Assembly: GCA_036382875.1 (NCBI GenBank)
Contig: DASVPJ010000044.1
Location: 159,891 to 223,890, forward strand
Length of the DNA: 64,000 nt
Reading direction: 5' to 3'
DNA from: Mycobacteriales bacterium
GTDB lineage: Bacteria > Actinomycetota > Actinomycetes > BP-191
The position numbers were made by a program, and so were the translations under genes. The notes beneath the pieces are model-generated. The model saw only the letters and a list, made by a program, of their open reading frames with translations. It was not told the DNA's origin and did not search any database. This document shows, one piece after another, positions 11,161 through 17,546 of this stretch (position 1 is the first letter of the stretch; each line of letters opens with the position of its first letter).

Positions 11161-11859
11161 CTACGCCGTCAGCACCGCCACGATCCGCGGGTCGCCCGCC
11201 GCCTCGACCGGCACCGGCCGGCCCCACAGCGCGAGCAGCAGGTCGCTGGCCGGGCCGTGCAGCGACGCCTCCGGGACCCCCGCGGGCACGCCCCGGACGA
11301 GCGACACCGAGTCCGGCCGCAGCGTGCCGAACCACGCGTCGCCGGTGTCGTCGCAGCGCACCGCGAACGTCCCCGCGAGGCCGTCCACCGGCCGCCGCGC
11401 GAGCGAGTACGGCAGGAACAGCGTGAGCGCCTCGTCCACCCCGTCCGCCGCGGCCGCCGCCTCGACCGGCGCGGGCGTCACGTCCCAGCGGTGCACCGCG
11501 ACCTCGTGCGCCATCCGGCGCGCCCACCACGCGACGTCGCCGGGCTCGCCCGACCAGTTCCAGACCGGCGTCTCCGGGGGCTCGTTCGCGAACGCGTCCA
11601 CCAGCTCGGCCGCCGACTCCTCGTACCACGCGACGACGTCGTCGCCGGGCGCGGGCACGCCGCCGAGGTCGACCTCCGCGTCGGCGTGGTCCCGCACGAT
11701 CCGCGCGACCCTGCGGAACCCGTCGCCGACGTGGCCGAGCAGGCGTTCGACGGTCCAGCCGGGACACGACGCCACGTCCGACGCGAGGCAGGTCGCGGCC
11801 GCCTCGGCGAGCGCGGCCGACTCGCGGCGCAGCGCGATTAGGTGCTCCTCGTAGTTCAT
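11161..11859 (-). CDS. Maleylpyruvate isomerase-family mycothiol-dependent enzyme (DinB_2-like, TIGR03083-type)
   Basis: N-terminal 'CPGWTVERLLGHV' is characteristic of the actinobacterial mycothiol-dependent enzyme family. ATGA overlap with the upstream gene. Confidence 0.65.
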   Translation of the reverse strand: MNYEEHLIALRRESAALAEAAATCLASDVASCPGWTVERLLGHVGDGFRRVARIVRDHADAEVDLGGVPAPGDDVVAWYEESAAELVDAFANEPPETPVWNWSGEPGDVAWWARRMAHEVAVHRWDVTPAPVEAAAAADGVDEALTLFLPYSLARRPVDGLAGTFAVRCDDTGDAWFGTLRPDSVSLVRGVPAGVPEASLHGPASDLLLALWGRPVPVEAAGDPRIVAVLTA

Positions 11860-12797
11860 GCGAGCAGCCTCGCGTACGTCGCCCCGTCCATGTTGCCGCC
11901 GGTCGCCACGACCACGACCGACGAGCCGCGCTCGACGCCCGCCGCGCCGGTCAGCAACGCCGCCACCCCGGCCGCCGCGGCCGGCTCCACCGCGAGCTTG
12001 GTGCGTTCGATCGTGCGCCGCATCGCCTCCACGATCGCCTCGTCCGGCACGGTGACCACCCGGTCGACGAACGACCGCACCGCGGCCAGCGTGTGCGTCC
12101 CGGCGAACGGCGCGCACAGCCCGTCCGCGACGCTCGACGGCACCATCGGCACCGGCTCGCCGGCCGCCAGCGCCCGGGTCATCGCGTCCGCGCCCTCCGG
12201 CTCGACGCCGACCACCGTGACCCCCGGCCGCAACGCCTTCAGCACGGCGGCGCAGCCGGAGGCGAGGCCGCCGCCGCCGATCTGCACGACGAGCGTGTCG
12301 AACGCCCCCACGTCCTCCGCGATCTCCAGCCCGACGGTGCCGTTGCCCGCGATGATCGCGGGGTCGTCGAACGGGTGCACCAGCGTGCGCCCGGTCTCCT
12401 CCTGGACGCGGTGCAGCGTGTCCACCAGCGCGCCGTCGGTCAGCACCACCTCGCCGCCGTACGCCTCGACCGCGGCGATCTTCCCGGGGTTCGCGTGTGC
12501 CGGCATGACGACCACGGCCGTGGTGCCGAGCGCGCGGGCGGCGTACGCGAGGCCGGCCGCGTGGTTGCCCGCCGACATCGTGACCAGCCCGGCCGACCGC
12601 CGTTCCGGCGGCATCGACAGCACGGCGTTGAAGCAGCCGCGGACCTTGAACGAGCCGGTCTTCTGGAACAGCTCCGCCTTGACCGTCAGCGACACGCCGG
12701 CGAGGTCGCCCAGCGACGTCGCGGAGAGGCAGGGCGTGCGGTGCACGTACGGCGCGATGCGGGCGGCGGCGGCGCGTACGAGGTCCAGGGTCGGCAT
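11856..12797 (-). CDS. PLP-dependent threonine/serine dehydratase family enzyme
   Basis: Motif 'SFKVRG' (PLP lysine) and Gly-rich 'GGGGL'. Confidence 0.8.
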   Translation of the reverse strand: MPTLDLVRAAAARIAPYVHRTPCLSATSLGDLAGVSLTVKAELFQKTGSFKVRGCFNAVLSMPPERRSAGLVTMSAGNHAAGLAYAARALGTTAVVVMPAHANPGKIAAVEAYGGEVVLTDGALVDTLHRVQEETGRTLVHPFDDPAIIAGNGTVGLEIAEDVGAFDTLVVQIGGGGLASGCAAVLKALRPGVTVVGVEPEGADAMTRALAAGEPVPMVPSSVADGLCAPFAGTHTLAAVRSFVDRVVTVPDEAIVEAMRRTIERTKLAVEPAAAAGVAALLTGAAGVERGSSVVVVATGGNMDGATYARLLA

Positions 12798-12826
12798 GGT
12801 TCCCACCCAACCGTCACAATCGGGCC

Positions 12827-13315
12827 ATGTCGATTTTCGAGCACAAGGCCGAGACGCTCTCCGGCGAGACCGTCTCCATGAACGACTTCGCCGGCAAGGC
12901 GCTGCTGGTCGTCAACGTCGCGTCCCGGTGCGGCCTCACGCCGCAGTACGCCGGCCTCGAGGCGCTGCACGAGGAGTACGCGCCGCGCGGGTTCTCCGTC
13001 GTCGGGTTCCCGTGCAACCAGTTCAAGGGGCAGGAGCCGGGCACCGCCGAGGAGATCCAGGAGTTCTGCTCGACGACGTACGGCGTGACGTTCCCGATGA
13101 TGGCGAAGACCGACGTCAACGGCCCCGACCGGCACCCGGTCTACGCGGAGCTGACGCGCTTCCCCGCCGGCGACGACCGCGGCGACGACGTCATCTGGAA
13201 CTTCGAGAAGTTCCTCGTCTCGCCCCAGGGCGAGGTCGTCGGCCGGTTCCGCCCGCAGGTGCTGCCGGAGGACCCGGCGCTGCGGTCGGCTATCGAGGCG
13301 GTCCTGCCGGCCTGA
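12827..13315 (+). CDS. gpx: Glutathione peroxidase
   Basis: Motif 'VVNVASRCGLTPQY' (catalytic Cys), 'FPCNQF' and 'WNFEKFL'. Confidence 0.9.
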   Translation: MSIFEHKAETLSGETVSMNDFAGKALLVVNVASRCGLTPQYAGLEALHEEYAPRGFSVVGFPCNQFKGQEPGTAEEIQEFCSTTYGVTFPMMAKTDVNGPDRHPVYAELTRFPAGDDRGDDVIWNFEKFLVSPQGEVVGRFRPQVLPEDPALRSAIEAVLPA

Positions 13316-13727
13316 GGTCGAGGTCCGGCGGCGGCGTGTCCGGCGTGCGGTAGACGAGGTACCCCTTGCCGAACGTCGCGTGCCAGTGGTTCACGCGCGC
13401 GACGAGGTGCTCCCACGCCGCCGCGAACGCCGCCGGGTCCTCGTCGTTGACGGCCTGCCGCAGCGGCGCGTAGTCGACCTCGAGGAACTCCTCCATCGCC
13501 TCGGCGTACTTCGGGCGGCTGAACGCGCTGTCCCGCAGCGACTTCGTCAGCGTGCGGCAGAAGTAGCCGGCGGCCGGCCAGTTGCCGTACGTCGCCGCCC
13601 AGTACAGCCGGCGGGCGCGTTCGGCGATCTCCGCCATCAGCCGGTCCATGCCGGGCTGGCTGCGGGCGAGCTCGTTGAGCGTCATCTCCCGCTTGCCGTT
13701 GTGCACGACGATCGCGTCGGCCTCCAC
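13290..13727 (-). CDS. Hypothetical protein
   Basis: High GC3, 145 aa, no recognisable domain. Convergent overlap with gpx. Confidence 0.45.
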   Translation of the reverse strand: MEADAIVVHNGKREMTLNELARSQPGMDRLMAEIAERARRLYWAATYGNWPAAGYFCRTLTKSLRDSAFSRPKYAEAMEEFLEVDYAPLRQAVNDEDPAAFAAAWEHLVARVNHWHATFGKGYLVYRTPDTPPPDLDLRPAGPPR

Positions 13728-13748
13728 GGACGGGAGCCTAGCCAGCGG

Positions 13749-13925
13749 TCAGGGCACCGGGACGCAGAGCGGGATCTCCGGCGTCCACGGGCGGCCGCTC
13801 GCGTAGGTCTCCGGGACCCACACGCAGACCTGCTGGTCCGCCGCGCTCGCCGGCAGGGCGAGCGCGGGCAGCGCGACGGCGGCGGCCACGGCGAGGAGGA
13901 CGGCGCGCTGGGGGTTGCGCGACAC
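13749..13925 (-). CDS. Small secreted peptide (58 aa; ~30-aa mature peptide with 2 Cys)
   Basis: GTG start preceded by an 'aggagtaaggag' RBS. Signal peptide 'AVLLAVAAAVALPALALPASA'. Lies immediately downstream of the ECF sigma fusion gene. Confidence 0.5.
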   Translation of the reverse strand: MSRNPQRAVLLAVAAAVALPALALPASAADQQVCVWVPETYASGRPWTPEIPLCVPVP

Positions 13926-13935
13926 GGACGGCTCC

Positions 13936-14925
13936 TTACTCCTCAGGGTCACAGAGCGGCGAGAACGGGTCGACGCTCAGTATCTCCTGCACGCAGCGCT
14001 GCACGGACTCTTCGAAGGATTCTTCCTCGTACTGCTGCTCCACCCGGACGCCCTCGCGGGTGCCGGCCAGGTTCGGGTCGCCGAGCGGCGGCGTCTCGAC
14101 CTCCGGCTTGTCGGGCGGGGTGACGACCGCGGGCGGCTTCGGCGGGACCACGACCGGGGGCGCGACCGTGCGGACGACCTGCCGCACGGTACCCACCGGG
14201 TCGGCCGCGGGCACCGCCGCGACCGGCGCCGCGCCGTCGCGGACGAGCCCGCCGGCGACCGGCGCGGCGGCCTGCGGGCGCGGCGGGTCGGACGACAGCA
14301 CGATGCCGCCCACGACGCCCGCGACGGTGACGACCGTGACGCCGGCCGCGACCGCGGCGGGCGTGCCGGCGTAGCGGGCCCGGCGGAGCAGGCCGAGCAC
14401 GGCGACGCTCGCGCTCTGCGCGGCGCGGCGCATCCGGTGCCTGGCCTTGGTCAGCGCCGCCTCGGCCGACTTGGTGCCGACGCCGAGGGTGAGCGCGGCC
14501 TCCTTGACGCTCATGCCGTTCGCCCGCGCGAACACCACGGCGAACTCGCGCGGCGACAGCTTCAGGCACTCGTCGTAGAGCCAGCGCGCCTCGGCCAGGT
14601 CGAGCAGCGTGTCGGTCGGGTCGGCCGGGTCGACGGTCCGCAGCGCGTCGCGGACGCCGACGCGGAGCTGGCGCACCCGGTCCCGCTGCACGTCGGCGCA
14701 CAGTCGCACGGTCACCGTCGTCAGGAACTGCCCGACGTACGCCGGGTCGAGGCGCTCGAACGTCACCGCGCGCAGCATCGCCTCCTGCACCACGTCGTCC
14801 ACCTCGTCCTTGCAGCCGAGGCGGCGGGCGGCGATCCGGCGGAGCCGTTCCTCGTGCGGCAGCACGAGCGGCCAGCGGGCGGCGACGTCGTCGGGCAGGG
14901 ACTCCGGTGCGGCGGTGAGCGTCAA
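13936..14925 (-). CDS. ECF sigma factor fused to a C-terminal TM helix and Pro-rich extracytoplasmic tail
   Basis: Sigma-2 region 'DEVDDVVQEAMLRA' and sigma-4 region 'LSPREFAVVFARANGMSVKEAALTLGVGTKSAEAALTKARHRMRR' continue in-frame into a TM helix 'VTVVTVAGVVGGIVL' and a 'PPVVVPPKPPAVVTPPDKPEVETPP' tail. Start is uncertain: ORF opens at 15207, TTG at 14925 or GTG at 14865 are plausible. Confidence 0.6.
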   Translation of the reverse strand: MTLTAAPESLPDDVAARWPLVLPHEERLRRIAARRLGCKDEVDDVVQEAMLRAVTFERLDPAYVGQFLTTVTVRLCADVQRDRVRQLRVGVRDALRTVDPADPTDTLLDLAEARWLYDECLKLSPREFAVVFARANGMSVKEAALTLGVGTKSAEAALTKARHRMRRAAQSASVAVLGLLRRARYAGTPAAVAAGVTVVTVAGVVGGIVLSSDPPRPQAAAPVAGGLVRDGAAPVAAVPAADPVGTVRQVVRTVAPPVVVPPKPPAVVTPPDKPEVETPPLGDPNLAGTREGVRVEQQYEEESFEESVQRCVQEILSVDPFSPLCDPEE

Positions 14926-15353
14926 CGACTCTCCCGGGTCCGTGGGCGGATGGAGCGCGGGTGGCCGATGCTTCGCCGTACGGGGGCGCTGTCCCTGCGT
15001 GGCCCCGAAAAAGTCGTAGGGGCCCCCCGTCCGGGCGCGTAAGACAGGTGCCCGCACGCGGCCGCGCGCCCAGCCCGCCGCGGCCGCGCGGGTGTGGCCC
15101 GGGCGGCGACCCTTCCCAGAAGGTCGCCGTCCGTGCGTCCCCGCCCAGGGGCGCCGGCTCGGTTGCTGGGGGGCGCCGTCCGGACCCTGAGGGGGTTTGG
15201 TGGTCATGGGCGGCCGCGCGCCCAGGAACGCGCGGCTGCCCGTGATCGCGGCCGCCGGGCGCGGCCCCGGCCCGCCGGGCCGCGGTCGCCCTTACCGACA
15301 CGCCACGGCGGCCCTGCGGGTTTTTGTCACACCCCCGTTGCACAGTGGTCCGC

Positions 15354-15623
15354 ATGGACATGACCCGCTGGTGCCGCGGCTGCGCCGCCGAGACGGCGTA
15401 CGTCCGCTTCGACTGCACGGAGCACCCCGAGGACTGCGTCGAGCTCGTCTGCGAGCTGTGCGGCGCCGGGTTCGAGCTGGCCGCGATCCAGGTCGCCGGC
15501 GGCACCGCCGCCGCGGCCGCCGCGGCCGCCGCGGCCGGCACGGCCGGCCCGGGCGCCACCTCGGCCGGCGCGGCCGGCGCCGCCCGCGCCACCGCGCGGA
15601 GGGGAGGGCGCCGCACCGCGTAG
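15354..15623 (+). CDS. Small zinc-ribbon-like protein with poly-Ala C-terminal tail
   Basis: Cys pairs 'CRGC...C...CELC'. GC3 near 100%. Divergent from the sigma gene. Confidence 0.5.
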   Translation: MDMTRWCRGCAAETAYVRFDCTEHPEDCVELVCELCGAGFELAAIQVAGGTAAAAAAAAAAGTAGPGATSAGAAGAARATARRGGRRTA

Positions 15624-15675
15624 CCGCCCACGCCCCCGCCCCAGCCGCGCGCGACGTCGCGCGCGCCGCCGCGGC

Positions 15676-16458
15676 TCAGCGCGGCGCGACCTCGGCCCAC
15701 GCCACGGTCAGCTCGCCGAGCCGCCAGCGCGCCGGGTTGCGCGCCACCCGCCACCCGTCCGCGCCGAGCGCGGCCGCCGCGTCGGCCCACCGCTGCCGGG
15801 CCGGGACGTCGCCCGCCCGCAGCCACGCCCGGTCCCACGCGACGAGGAACGCGTGCACCCGCTCGCCGGTGACGTTGCGGTGGATGAGCGCCTTGGGCAG
15901 GCGTTCGGCCAGGTCGGAGGGCCGCTCCAGCTCCTCGACGCGGGCCGCGAACGTCACCGTCCGCGGCCCGTCCTTGTCGAGCGCGACCCACACCGCGCGC
16001 CGGCCGATCTCGTCGCACGTGCCCTCGACGAGCACGCCGTCGTCGTCGAGCCGCTCGCGCAGCACGTCCCACGCGTGGAGGGCGGACGGCTCGTCGTACT
16101 GGCGGAGGACGTTCATCGCGCGGACCACGACGGGCCGCCGCCCGCCGAGCGGCACGTCGAATCCGCCGTGCACGAACGACAGCCGCTCCCGCGCGTACGG
16201 CGCCGCGGCCTCGACGCGCTCGCGGACGATCTCGACGCCGACCACCTCGACGTCGGGCCGCGCCTCCGCGAGCCGGGCGGCGAGCTCCAGCGTGGTGACC
16301 GGGTGCCGCCCGTAGCCGAGGTCCACGACGAGGGGGTCGGCGGCCCGGCGCAGCCGCGCGCCGTGCAACGCCACCAGCCAGCGGTCGACGCGGCGCAGCC
16401 GGTTCGGGTGGGTGGTGCCGCGCGTCTCCTCGCCGAGCGGCCGGCGCGGCCTGCTCAC
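15676..16458 (-). CDS. Class I SAM-dependent methyltransferase
   Basis: Motifs 'VVDLGYGRHPVTT' and 'VVGVEI'. GTG start overlaps the upstream stop (GTGA). Confidence 0.7.
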   Translation of the reverse strand: MSRPRRPLGEETRGTTHPNRLRRVDRWLVALHGARLRRAADPLVVDLGYGRHPVTTLELAARLAEARPDVEVVGVEIVRERVEAAAPYARERLSFVHGGFDVPLGGRRPVVVRAMNVLRQYDEPSALHAWDVLRERLDDDGVLVEGTCDEIGRRAVWVALDKDGPRTVTFAARVEELERPSDLAERLPKALIHRNVTGERVHAFLVAWDRAWLRAGDVPARQRWADAAAALGADGWRVARNPARWRLGELTVAWAEVAPR

Positions 16459-17546
16459 CCGCGCACCGTCCGCAACGCGGCGGCGAGGCGTTCGAAGTCG
16501 CCGAGGGTGTTGTACGGCGCCGCCGACGCCCGCAGCCAGCCGCGCCCGCGCCACGGCGTCGCGCCGACCTCGACCCGCGCCTCGGCCCACAGCCGGTCGC
16601 GCAGCGCCAGCGCCTCGTCGTACGTCATCACGCCGGGGTCGAGCAGCACCATCGACGCCTGCCGCCCGCGCGGCACGGGCCGGGCGAGCCCGGTCAGCGC
16701 GGCGCCGTCCCAGGCCAGCGCGCGGCCGTGCGCCCGCACCTCGTCCCACCCGAGGTCGTCCATGAACGCCAGCGCGGCCGGCACCGACAGCCACGCCGAC
16801 GGGTCGAACGTCCCCGCCCAGTCGAACTCCGCCTGGAACCCCAGCCCCCACCCGTGCGACGGCACGAGCGGCCGCACCGGCGAGCGGGCGTAGAGGACGG
16901 CGGCGCCCTTCGGCGCGCAGACCCACTTGTGCAGGTTGCCGGTCCACCAGTCCGGGTCGAGCGCGGTGAGGTCCACCGGCAGCAGGCCCGGCGCGTGCGC
17001 GGCGTCGACCAGGCACGGCACGCCGCGCGCGCGGCACCCGCGCACGACCTCCTCGAACGGCATCCGCACCGCCGTCCCCGACGTCACCGCGTCGACCACG
17101 ACCAGCCGCGCACGCTCGTCCACCGCGTCGAGCAGGACGGACGCCGGCGCGTCCGGGTCGAACGCCACCACGTGCACCTGCGCGCCGCGCGCGGCGAGCG
17201 TGTTCGCGACGGCGGGGTAGACGTGGTCGGTGACGACGGCGCGGTCGCCGGGCCGCACCACCGACGCGAGCACGGTGGCGGCGCCGGTGGTGGCGTTCGG
17301 GACGAACACCAGCCGCTCCGGGTCCGCGCCGAGGAACGCCGCCACCTCCGCGCGCGCGGCCGCGACGAGCGGCCAGTAGCGGCGGGCCAGGAAGTCGACC
17401 GGCTGCTCCTCCAGCCGCGCCCGCCAGCGGGCCTGCTCCTCCAGCACCGCGGTCGGCGTCGCGCCGAACGACCCGTGGTTGAGGAACGCCGCCTCCGGGT
17501 CGAGCGGCCACGCCCCGCGCACCCCCGCGCCCAGGCGCGCCGTCAC
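16455..17546 (-). CDS. Aminotransferase class V-fold PLP-dependent enzyme (isopenicillin N epimerase-like family)
   Basis: Motif 'NHGSFGATP'. Lengths ~360 aa. GTGA overlap at both ends. Confidence 0.75.
   Translation of the reverse strand: MTARLGAGVRGAWPLDPEAAFLNHGSFGATPTAVLEEQARWRARLEEQPVDFLARRYWPLVAAARAEVAAFLGADPERLVFVPNATTGAATVLASVVRPGDRAVVTDHVYPAVANTLAARGAQVHVVAFDPDAPASVLLDAVDERARLVVVDAVTSGTAVRMPFEEVVRGCRARGVPCLVDAAHAPGLLPVDLTALDPDWWTGNLHKWVCAPKGAAVLYARSPVRPLVPSHGWGLGFQAEFDWAGTFDPSAWLSVPAALAFMDDLGWDEVRAHGRALAWDGAALTGLARPVPRGRQASMVLLDPGVMTYDEALALRDRLWAEARVEVGATPWRGRGWLRASAAPYNTLGDFERLAAALRTVRG

Follow-up and report, generated by a model that had tools for sequence, protein, structure and literature searches.

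A predicted membrane-tethered ECF sigma factor with a two-cysteine C-terminal module, encoded next to a small secreted peptide in a Mycobacteriales genome

The stretch of DNA analysed here (the window hereafter) comprises 64,000 nucleotides of a Mycobacteriales bacterium, positions 159,891 to 223,890 of contig DASVPJ010000044.1 in GenBank assembly GCA_036382875.1. Its minus strand carries a gene for an extracytoplasmic function (ECF) sigma factor that continues in frame into a transmembrane (TM) helix, a proline-rich spacer and a short C-terminal module with two cysteines, and that is followed directly by a gene for a small, putatively exported peptide. We propose that this protein is a membrane-tethered ECF sigma factor with a single membrane pass, a one-component transmembrane switch encoded as a two-gene unit together with the secreted peptide, and that its sigma domain is released by proteolysis, a reading to which we give a little under an even chance. 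The original prediction, made from the sequence alone, had picked out the in-frame fusion with its Pro-rich tail and acidic, Cys-containing C-terminus, the 58-codon gene 10 nt downstream with a ribosome-binding site (RBS) and signal peptide, and a divergent zinc-ribbon gene at 15354..15623. All three are present and all three recur elsewhere: the fusion is kept in about 25 full-length orthologues, the peptide gene keeps its position and motif in 10 of 10 orthologous loci, and the zinc-ribbon gene is conserved in all 10 loci with upstream sequence.

Results

The sigma domain and the start of its gene

An open reading frame (ORF) on the minus strand extends over 13936..15207, and all sigma-factor matches fall within its residues 107-266. 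Sigma70_r2 (E=1.4e-9, 38 bits against a Pfam cutoff of 24), Sigma70_ECF (E=3.2e-5, 24.4 bits, cutoff 21.1) and TIGR02937 (E=2.9e-12, 46.5 bits, cutoff 42.9) all pass their thresholds, and Sigma70_r4_2 (E=8.7e-5, 22.5 bits) falls slightly under its cutoff of 25.7 bits; the Pfam scan made for the family gave 1e-9 for Sigma70_r2 and 5.8e-5 for r4_2. Neither region 1 nor region 3 domains were matched in the Pfam and NCBIfam scans of the sigma protein, and its sigma domain has sequence matches in the PDB to SigE and SigL. Judged by these matches, the protein is an ECF (group 4) member of the sigma-70 family. The predicted cytoplasmic part, at 14419..14868 (-), consists of sigma-2 (aa 20-85) and sigma-4 (aa 121-169), as delimited by Pfam, structural modelling and the PDB matches. 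The AlphaFold2 (AF2) model, built from a 24-sequence alignment, has a predicted local distance difference test score (pLDDT) above 90 over roughly aa 10-180, with the last sigma-4 helix reaching residue 185, and the sigma-2/sigma-4 domain is complete.

The start of the gene had been placed at the ATG at 15207, and here the original prediction has to be corrected. GC content by codon position is flat (0.78/0.74/0.80) across 15207..14926, with no coding periodicity; the Joint Genome Institute (JGI) gene call of an identical protein (P0001) is 329 aa long and starts at the TTG at 14925; and a conserved promoter-like motif, P1, described below, lies inside the extension. ATG 15207 was therefore ruled out. 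The sigma gene is 13936..14925 (-), with a TTG start, a TAA stop and the RBS GGGAG, and the 94-codon N-terminal extension is non-coding, a spurious high-GC ORF. GC content at third codon positions (GC3) is 0.98 in the sigma domain, 0.99 in the TM helix and spacer, 0.89 in the C-terminal module and 1.00 in the peptide gene. Long overlapping ORFs on both strands of the surrounding region (11842..16315), among them one of 707 aa at 13949..16072 and one of 375 aa at 13915..15042, result from the very high GC content and are not genes.

Membrane anchor, spacer and two-cysteine module

Sigma-4 is joined to the membrane segment by a juxtamembrane linker of 18 residues (aa 170-187, QSASVAVLGLLRRARYAG) that contains no Cys or His. 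The single TM helix (aa 188-211, TPAAVAAGVTVVTVAGVVGGIVLS; 14293..14364 (-)) is rich in Gly, Thr and Val, with a Kyte-Doolittle 19-residue maximum of 2.33, and AF2 models a helix over residues 191-211. A cluster of Arg residues (LLRRARY) lies N-terminal to the helix and none follows it, so that by the positive-inside rule the protein fits an N-in/C-out topology. Beyond the helix comes a predicted extracytoplasmic spacer of 65 residues (aa 212-276; 14098..14292 (-)) that is 25% Pro, 23% Val and 18% Ala and varies in length among orthologues, and the chain ends in the acidic two-Cys module (aa 277-329, ETPPLGDPNLAGTREGVRVEQQYEEESFEESVQRCVQEILSVDPFSPLCDPEE; 13939..14097 (-)), which was delimited by orthologue conservation and by a module profile.

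The module pattern in the orthologues is TPPxGDP..GT..GV..E(D/E)E(S/T)F.E(S/T)(L/V)..C(V/L)....DP.H..C, in which C311 is invariant and C325 is more than 90% conserved. Mean identity to the window protein is 80% in the sigma domain, 47% in the juxtamembrane segment and TM helix, 24% in the spacer and 46% in the module. Because the module holds 46% where the spacer holds 24%, it appears to be under constraint, the spacer being simply a spacer. No Pfam or NCBIfam model covers the module in the scans of this protein or of the family. In the AF2 model the TM helix and tail have pLDDT values of 36-65, with one short helix over ESFEESVQRCV.

Conservation of the fusion and the wider family

Homology searching added 24 proteins from different samples, 308-363 aa long, which align over 94-100% of the query at 50-68% identity. 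In all 24 the TM helix and the C-terminal module are retained, with a variable, Pro-rich spacer between them, and none of the 24 is interrupted by a stop or frameshift of the kind against which the original prediction had cautioned for other assemblies. The fusion, the two Cys and the peptide recur across independent assemblies; the only orthologues with a name are proteins of 'Frankiaceae bacterium' metagenome-assembled genomes. That the fusion is an artefact, whether a frameshift or assembly error that hides an anti-sigma gene or a functionless read-through tail, is effectively refuted by these data. High-GC genomes do yield long spurious ORFs, as the N-terminal extension of this very ORF illustrates, but the same uninterrupted layout is found in the ~25 orthologues and in 43 representative clusters, from unrelated samples, and GC3 stays at 0.89-0.99 through the TM helix, the spacer and the module, which is itself conserved with invariant Cys. 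A split gene was excluded on the strength of the uninterrupted full-length orthologues and of this periodicity through the tail.

A profile of the module, made from the last 55 residues of 20 orthologues and run against 1.84 billion representative proteins with an E-value limit of 1e-3, matched 58 representatives, 43 of which are ECF sigma proteins with the module at the C-terminus. Sigma status of the new representatives was judged by phmmer with the sigma domain of the window protein: 40 of the 54 are ECF sigma proteins of 197-368 aa (most 290-340), and P0013, P0023 and P0026 bring the number to 43. In the sigma-positive new representatives the module sits 0-25 residues from the C-terminus, and most have a hydrophobic segment after the sigma domain, mostly at aa 160-230, the Kyte-Doolittle 19-residue maximum being at least 1.5 in 38 of the 40. 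The remaining module matches are products of 43-237 aa, probably truncated gene calls, plus a single 975-aa match in nine short stretches that is probably spurious.

The module core of the whole family reads G-V-x-V-x3-H-x-[DE]-E-[ST]-[FL]-x-[EQ]-[ST]-[LV]-x-R-C-[LV]-x2-G-[VI]-x-[VL]-x-P-x2-[VIL]-G-C, and neither Cys varies across the 38 diverse members of alignment A5. A Pfam scan of these 38 members gave sigma and helix-turn-helix families only, with no zf-HC2, RskA, FecR or other anti-sigma family in any of them, and inhibition therefore cannot use a classical anti-sigma fold. The original prediction had called the architecture 'fused sigma/anti-sigma-like' and uncommon. The fusion part of that description stands, but the anti-sigma part does not, as the gap between sigma-4 and the helix is 18 residues long and no anti-sigma or zinc-finger domain was detected in this protein or in the 38 members; 'uncommon' is fair, yet TM-containing extensions have already been described for several ECF groups, as set out in the last section.

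Searching with the diverse family alignment again returned mostly close orthologues, with just two distant members (L105 and L106) that could be placed on contigs. The downstream neighbour of both is a convergent gene whose visible C-terminus resembles ffh on a reading of the sequence, and upstream lie divergent genes for secreted proteins whose mature chains have Cys close to each end (L105:2130-2840 (-), L106:857-1246 (-) and L106:215-748 (-)). A scan of genome contigs gave an unfused Frankia relative and Streptomyces cousins only, and a scan of metagenome contigs, with search patterns that were too generic, recovered no close orthologue. The Frankia relative (L001:549-1109, Frankia sp. AgKG'84/4) is a 186-aa sigma-only protein with 50% identity in the sigma domain, no TM tail and a convergent gene next to it; it represents either the unfused ancestral state or a secondary loss.

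The cousins in Streptomyces spp. (L002..L013) are ECF sigma factors of ~33% identity with a TM helix and a long Pro/Ser-rich tail, without the Cys module and without the peptide, and most of them lie directly upstream of an ABC-transporter ATPase gene that resembles mkl/mceG as far as its sequence can be read. These relatives, tethered sigma factors too, constitute a group that occurs in cultured strains and is open to experiment. Because the distant and the Streptomyces relatives have a TM tail without a peptide, tethering appears to be older and more widespread, and the peptide restricted to the present lineage. Nearly all that is known of the family itself comes from metagenomes, and its occurrence so far is confined to Frankia-like bacteria of soil that have not been cultured.

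The secreted peptide

The peptide gene (13749..13925 (-), 58 codons) starts at a GTG at 13925, 10 nt past the sigma stop codon, behind the RBS AAGGAG at 13937..13932. A signal peptide is predicted from sequence features at aa 1-28 (MSRNPQRAVLLAVAAAVALPALALPASA; 13925..13842 (-)), with cleavage between PASA and ADQQ, which would leave a mature peptide of 30 aa (ADQQVCVWVPETYASGRPWTPEIPLCVPVP; 13841..13752 (-)). Orthologous loci were compared in the window and in nine further recovered contigs. In all 10 a gene of 54-71 codons lies directly after the sigma gene, in the +1 position, at a distance of -4 to +58 nt, and in three of them its start overlaps the sigma stop by 4 nt. Every one of the 10 products has a basic N-region, a hydrophobic core and an AxA-type cleavage site, and the mature peptides of 26-38 residues share the pattern C-x3-P-x2-[WYF]-x2-G-x8-C-[VI]-P-W-P. 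The Cys are 19 residues apart in nine loci and 17 in one (C-x17/19-C[VI]P-W-P), the stop codon follows 0-9 residues past the motif, and the region between the Cys evolves fast, at ~40% identity. With these features the +1 product qualifies as a predicted Sec-exported small Cys-pair peptide.

The peptide motif near the end of an ORF, written as a regular expression, occurs once in the 64-kb window and is absent from the non-orthologous loci compared. A profile of the ten peptides found 13 proteins at E<1e-9 among 5.8 billion, all of 54-71 aa, plus one marginal match.

A paralogue of the sigma factor (P0027, at locus L060) comes from the same metagenome assembly as one of the orthologues (P0015). 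Its sigma domain has ~47% identity, it too carries a TM helix and a two-Cys module, and its +1 gene (L060:5056-5685 (+), overlapping by 4 nt) encodes a 209-aa secreted Cys-rich protein that ends in C-x15-CVPWGP and has no Pfam match on record. The pairing of a module-bearing sigma factor with an exported, CVPW-terminated protein thus seems to have been kept through duplication, with a change in the size of the partner. The 209-aa protein may show where the peptide came from, or may be a larger form of the same partner.

Upstream region and promoter-like motif

The predicted promoter-like motif P1, TTACG-N17-CCCTA(C/G)(G/A)A, lies at 15014..15042 (-), ~95 nt upstream of the start codon, and its spacing is invariant in 10 of 10 aligned upstream regions. 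It occurs once in the window, against 0 copies expected from shuffles, and exactly once per locus in 11 of 11 orthologous loci, compared with 0 of 95 other loci. A regulon search with P1 gave this one site per locus, always upstream of the sigma gene, and no second site.

Between P1 and the start codon, the 5' leader (14926..15013 (-)) has conserved blocks in the same 10 aligned regions, AGGAY-N15/16-CGAA and CCCGCG..ATCC, ahead of the RBS. These blocks may be a second, ECF-type promoter, a regulatory RNA or a protein-binding site, and one of the conserved upstream elements may be an autoregulated promoter. An Rfam search of the region gave no match. A generic scan for sigma-70 promoters and terminators found nothing, with no terminator-like site between the sigma, peptide and 145-aa protein genes.

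Neighbouring genes

The divergent zinc-ribbon gene (15354..15623 (+)) is a conserved neighbour with at most a putative link to the sigma system. Its core, RWCxGCA..FDC..HPEDCVELVC..CG, is kept in each of the 10 orthologous loci with upstream sequence, the window included; the gene is absent at the paralogue locus and beside the distant family members, and its product has no Pfam or NCBIfam match. The window copy has a poly-Ala/Gly tail (GC at codon position 2 = 1.0) that is lacking in the other loci. Upstream of this gene, in the intergenic region 15208..15353, is a conserved non-coding element that reads, in the direction of the gene, CGACACGCC-N~15-TTTTTGTCACACCCCC-N-TTGCACAGTGG. In the window, L058 and L055 its end lies 5-6 nt ahead of the ATG, and in these three the zinc-ribbon transcript may be leaderless; in L057, L061 and L062 it lies ~30 nt upstream and is followed by a GGAGG RBS.

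Downstream of the peptide gene, at 13290..13727 (-), is a syntenic gene for a 145-aa cytoplasmic protein with 76-90% identity among loci. It is better conserved than the sigma factor, with invariant GNWPAA, FSRPKY and NHWH, and a single-sequence AF2 model is a four-helix bundle (pLDDT 78). Foldseek against the PDB gave generic helical bundles only (best E=0.21), phmmer against the PDB gave nothing, and no Pfam or NCBIfam relative was found. Because an MFS gene on the opposite strand lies between the peptide gene and the 145-aa gene in L063, and because the 145-aa gene is absent at L060, this protein is probably not an obligatory part of the sigma-peptide unit.

The upstream flank contains an FGGY-family gene, an aminotransferase, a short-chain dehydrogenase and a protein of 261-277 aa without a Pfam match, and the downstream flank, after the 145-aa gene, contains GSHPx, PALP and MDMPI genes. 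As gene order is conserved across these related genomes, the neighbourhood alone says little. At 15676..16470 (-) the window encodes a conserved protein of ~264 aa, without a Pfam match and syntenic in all orthologous loci with enough upstream sequence, whose DLGYG motif looks like that of a SAM-dependent methyltransferase from its sequence.

Discussion

A proposed model of regulated release

In the model that we put forward, the tether would keep the sigma domain membrane-bound and apart from free RNA polymerase. Outside the cell, the Cys pair of the module and that of the peptide would each form a disulfide, and the module would act as the sensor, probably bound or shielded by the peptide, which would be co-produced in stoichiometric amounts. 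A signal, be it thiol/redox, envelope stress or loss of the peptide, would disturb this outside complex and open the tail to attack by a site-1 or tail-specific protease, whereupon a site-2 protease would cut the Gly/Thr-rich TM helix and free an active sigma domain of ~185 aa. The net effect would be regulated intramembrane proteolysis without a separate anti-sigma factor. The single-pass N-in topology, the helix-destabilising Gly and Thr in the TM segment and the position of the module at the extreme C-terminus are all compatible with a substrate of such proteolysis. It is a real if doubtful possibility that sigma factor and peptide form a receptor-ligand pair under tethering-only control, in which the two-Cys module receives, or is shielded by, the CVPWP peptide, and the presence, redox state or titration of the peptide decides whether clipping occurs. 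If true, this would be a new mode of ECF regulation, a 'split sensor' or an autocrine peptide-sensing sigma factor.

Several points weigh against the release model. We infer the proteolysis, the disulfides and the binding of module to peptide for every member of the family, and no protease gene was identified near the locus. A linker as short as 18 residues is not in itself proof that tethering inactivates the protein. AF2 with the 24-sequence alignment assigned no fold to the module, and thus lends no structural support to a folded module. A partner that is constitutively co-expressed would be an odd 'signal', and because both L105 and L106 are without a +1 peptide, the peptide appears not to be required by every module-bearing sigma factor.

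The absence of the peptide beside these distant members would suit a different role for it, as an output of the system (an antimicrobial, a signalling molecule or a cell-wall effector) coupled to the sigma gene, with the module sensing something else. ECF operons are commonly autoregulated and carry target genes, and the fast evolution between the peptide's Cys is what would be expected of an effector or recognition peptide. The +1 position, however, is the usual place of a cognate regulator, with the start and stop codons overlapping in three of the 10 loci; the pairing recurs at the paralogue with a different and larger CVPW-terminated protein; and the peptide family, with ~14 members among 5.8 billion proteins, is found beside the sigma gene in every inspectable locus. 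We consider the output role improbable on this evidence, and it would in any case be compatible with release of the sigma factor, the two not being exclusive. Activity of the sigma factor in its tethered state, in the manner of ToxR or CadC, is unlikely as well. Core RNA polymerase would then be recruited at the membrane, with the module and the peptide tuning stability or oligomerisation. In its favour, the protein has a seemingly complete sigma domain and lacks an inhibitory anti-sigma domain, the 18-residue linker could join the sigma-4 C-terminus to the membrane, and ToxRS is an example of a membrane-bound activator that has two periplasmic Cys and is co-transcribed with a partner. Yet no membrane-active sigma factor was found in the literature searched, and cleavage is considered necessary for those fused ECF sigma factors on which studies or predictions exist. 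AF2, moreover, puts most of the linker into a helix that continues sigma-4, which would leave little room for a ~400-kDa holoenzyme on DNA.

We regard it as very unlikely that the zinc-ribbon protein is the true cytoplasmic anti-sigma factor, a minimal relative of the zinc-binding anti-sigma (ZAS) proteins, with the membrane tail secondary. Its gene does adjoin the sigma gene in all orthologous loci with upstream sequence, its product has many Cys and His residues, among them a stretch H-x3-C-x4-C-x2-C bearing a loose likeness to the ZAS motif H-x3-C-x2-C, and the related fused ECF48, ECF52 and ECF53 proteins carry a zinc finger in cis. But a core of ~45 aa is too small for a four-helix anti-sigma domain and has no zf-HC2 match, the gene is missing from the paralogue and the distant family members, and all of these loci lie in related genomes, which share the flanking gene order in any event.

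Bacteria transduce signals by three major routes, the third of which is the ECF sigma factors, and members that have regulatory extensions built in attract interest as one-protein switches. Very little is known of the membrane-anchored ECF48, ECF52 and ECF53 proteins and IutY, in each of which an anti-sigma or zinc-finger domain can be recognised. The family described here drops that domain, and its conserved extras are the two-Cys module and, in this lineage, a 30-aa secreted partner. Should the release model be true, no smaller transmembrane sigma switch would have been described to date, and the system would be a simple one in which to study silencing by tethering alone and the gating of intramembrane proteolysis by a disulfide module. 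Two unannotated families missed by current domain libraries, the C-terminal module and the CVPWP peptide, are defined in the process.

Comparison with known systems

ECF groups were compared through their published descriptions in the classification of Casas-Pastor et al. (2021). TM-containing C-terminal extensions have been described for ECF48, ECF52, ECF53, ECF57, ECF220, ECF262, ECF263 and IutY; a search of the literature on membrane-bound or membrane-tethered sigma factors as such found no relevant paper. The closest in layout to the present family are ECF48, ECF52 and ECF53, which are likewise actinobacterial, with about one TM helix, a Pro-rich extracytoplasmic stretch and a domain outside the cell, have no separate anti-sigma gene, and are proposed to be released by proteolysis, in the same way as IutY (PMC8999054). 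These groups have a zf-HC2/ZAS zinc finger between sigma-4 and the TM helix, where the window protein has its 18 residues and no zinc finger; PF13490 (zf-HC2) gave no match at E up to 1 in this protein, and none in the 38 diverse members. Their extensions reach 350-400 aa, as against ~160 aa here, and a dedicated secreted peptide at +1 is a feature of the present system that they do not share. ECF52 (SCO4117 of Streptomyces coelicolor), of which a truncated form keeps regulatory activity (PMC5826349), has a carbohydrate-binding module after the Pro-rich stretch in the place of the two-Cys module of ~50 aa. The ECF53 promoter signature, TGTTTATC..TCTCC, is not matched by the upstream motif found here (TGTCTTACG..CCCTAGAA).

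IutY of Pseudomonas putida (ECF243) also unites a sigma domain, a TM helix and an outside sensor in one polypeptide. Its sigma factor is activated by Prc and RseP cleavage, and a truncated form is constitutively active (PMC8999054). IutY has a FecR-type anti-sigma domain, a large periplasmic domain, a TonB-dependent receptor and a role in Gram-negative cell-surface signalling, none of which is seen here. On sequence grounds, then, the window protein lacks the defining features of ECF48, ECF52, ECF53 and ECF243/IutY. ECF287 shares an actinobacterial origin, a conserved Cys-containing C-terminal extension and the lack of an anti-sigma factor, but its extension is ~80 aa long with no TM helix listed, and its neighbours are MerR/TetR and alpha/beta hydrolase genes. 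Assignment to ECF287 was rejected in view of the ~160-aa extension with a TM helix and of the zinc-ribbon, peptide, 145-aa protein, GSHPx and PALP neighbours.

With the RpoE-RseA-RseB and SigW-RsiW systems the present one has in common the +1 position of the partner gene, a single-pass topology, an outside sensor and, as would be expected, site-1/site-2 proteolysis. In contrast to both, the anchor is within the sigma factor itself and there is no anti-sigma domain, and the +1 product, a predicted exported peptide of 30 aa, would be unable to reach the cytoplasmic sigma domain. ToxR of Vibrio cholerae, and CadC, are one-component, DNA-directed transcription factors on a single TM helix, and the outside domain of ToxR has two Cys; its small partner ToxS is encoded immediately downstream in the same operon and binds and protects that domain, and proteolysis of ToxR depends both on the redox state of the periplasmic Cys and on ToxS (PMC6242745, PMC8359183). 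ToxR is a winged-helix activator that acts while membrane-bound and is not a sigma factor, and ToxS is membrane-anchored and unrelated in sequence, such that the analogy is functional only. The mechanism proposed here would resemble IutY and ECF52 in the release of a self-anchored sigma factor, and ToxR/ToxS in a two-Cys domain protected by a partner. Membrane-anchored ECF sigma factors are thus already known, and what is new in this family is the lack of a zinc finger, the two-Cys module and the lineage-specific partner peptide.

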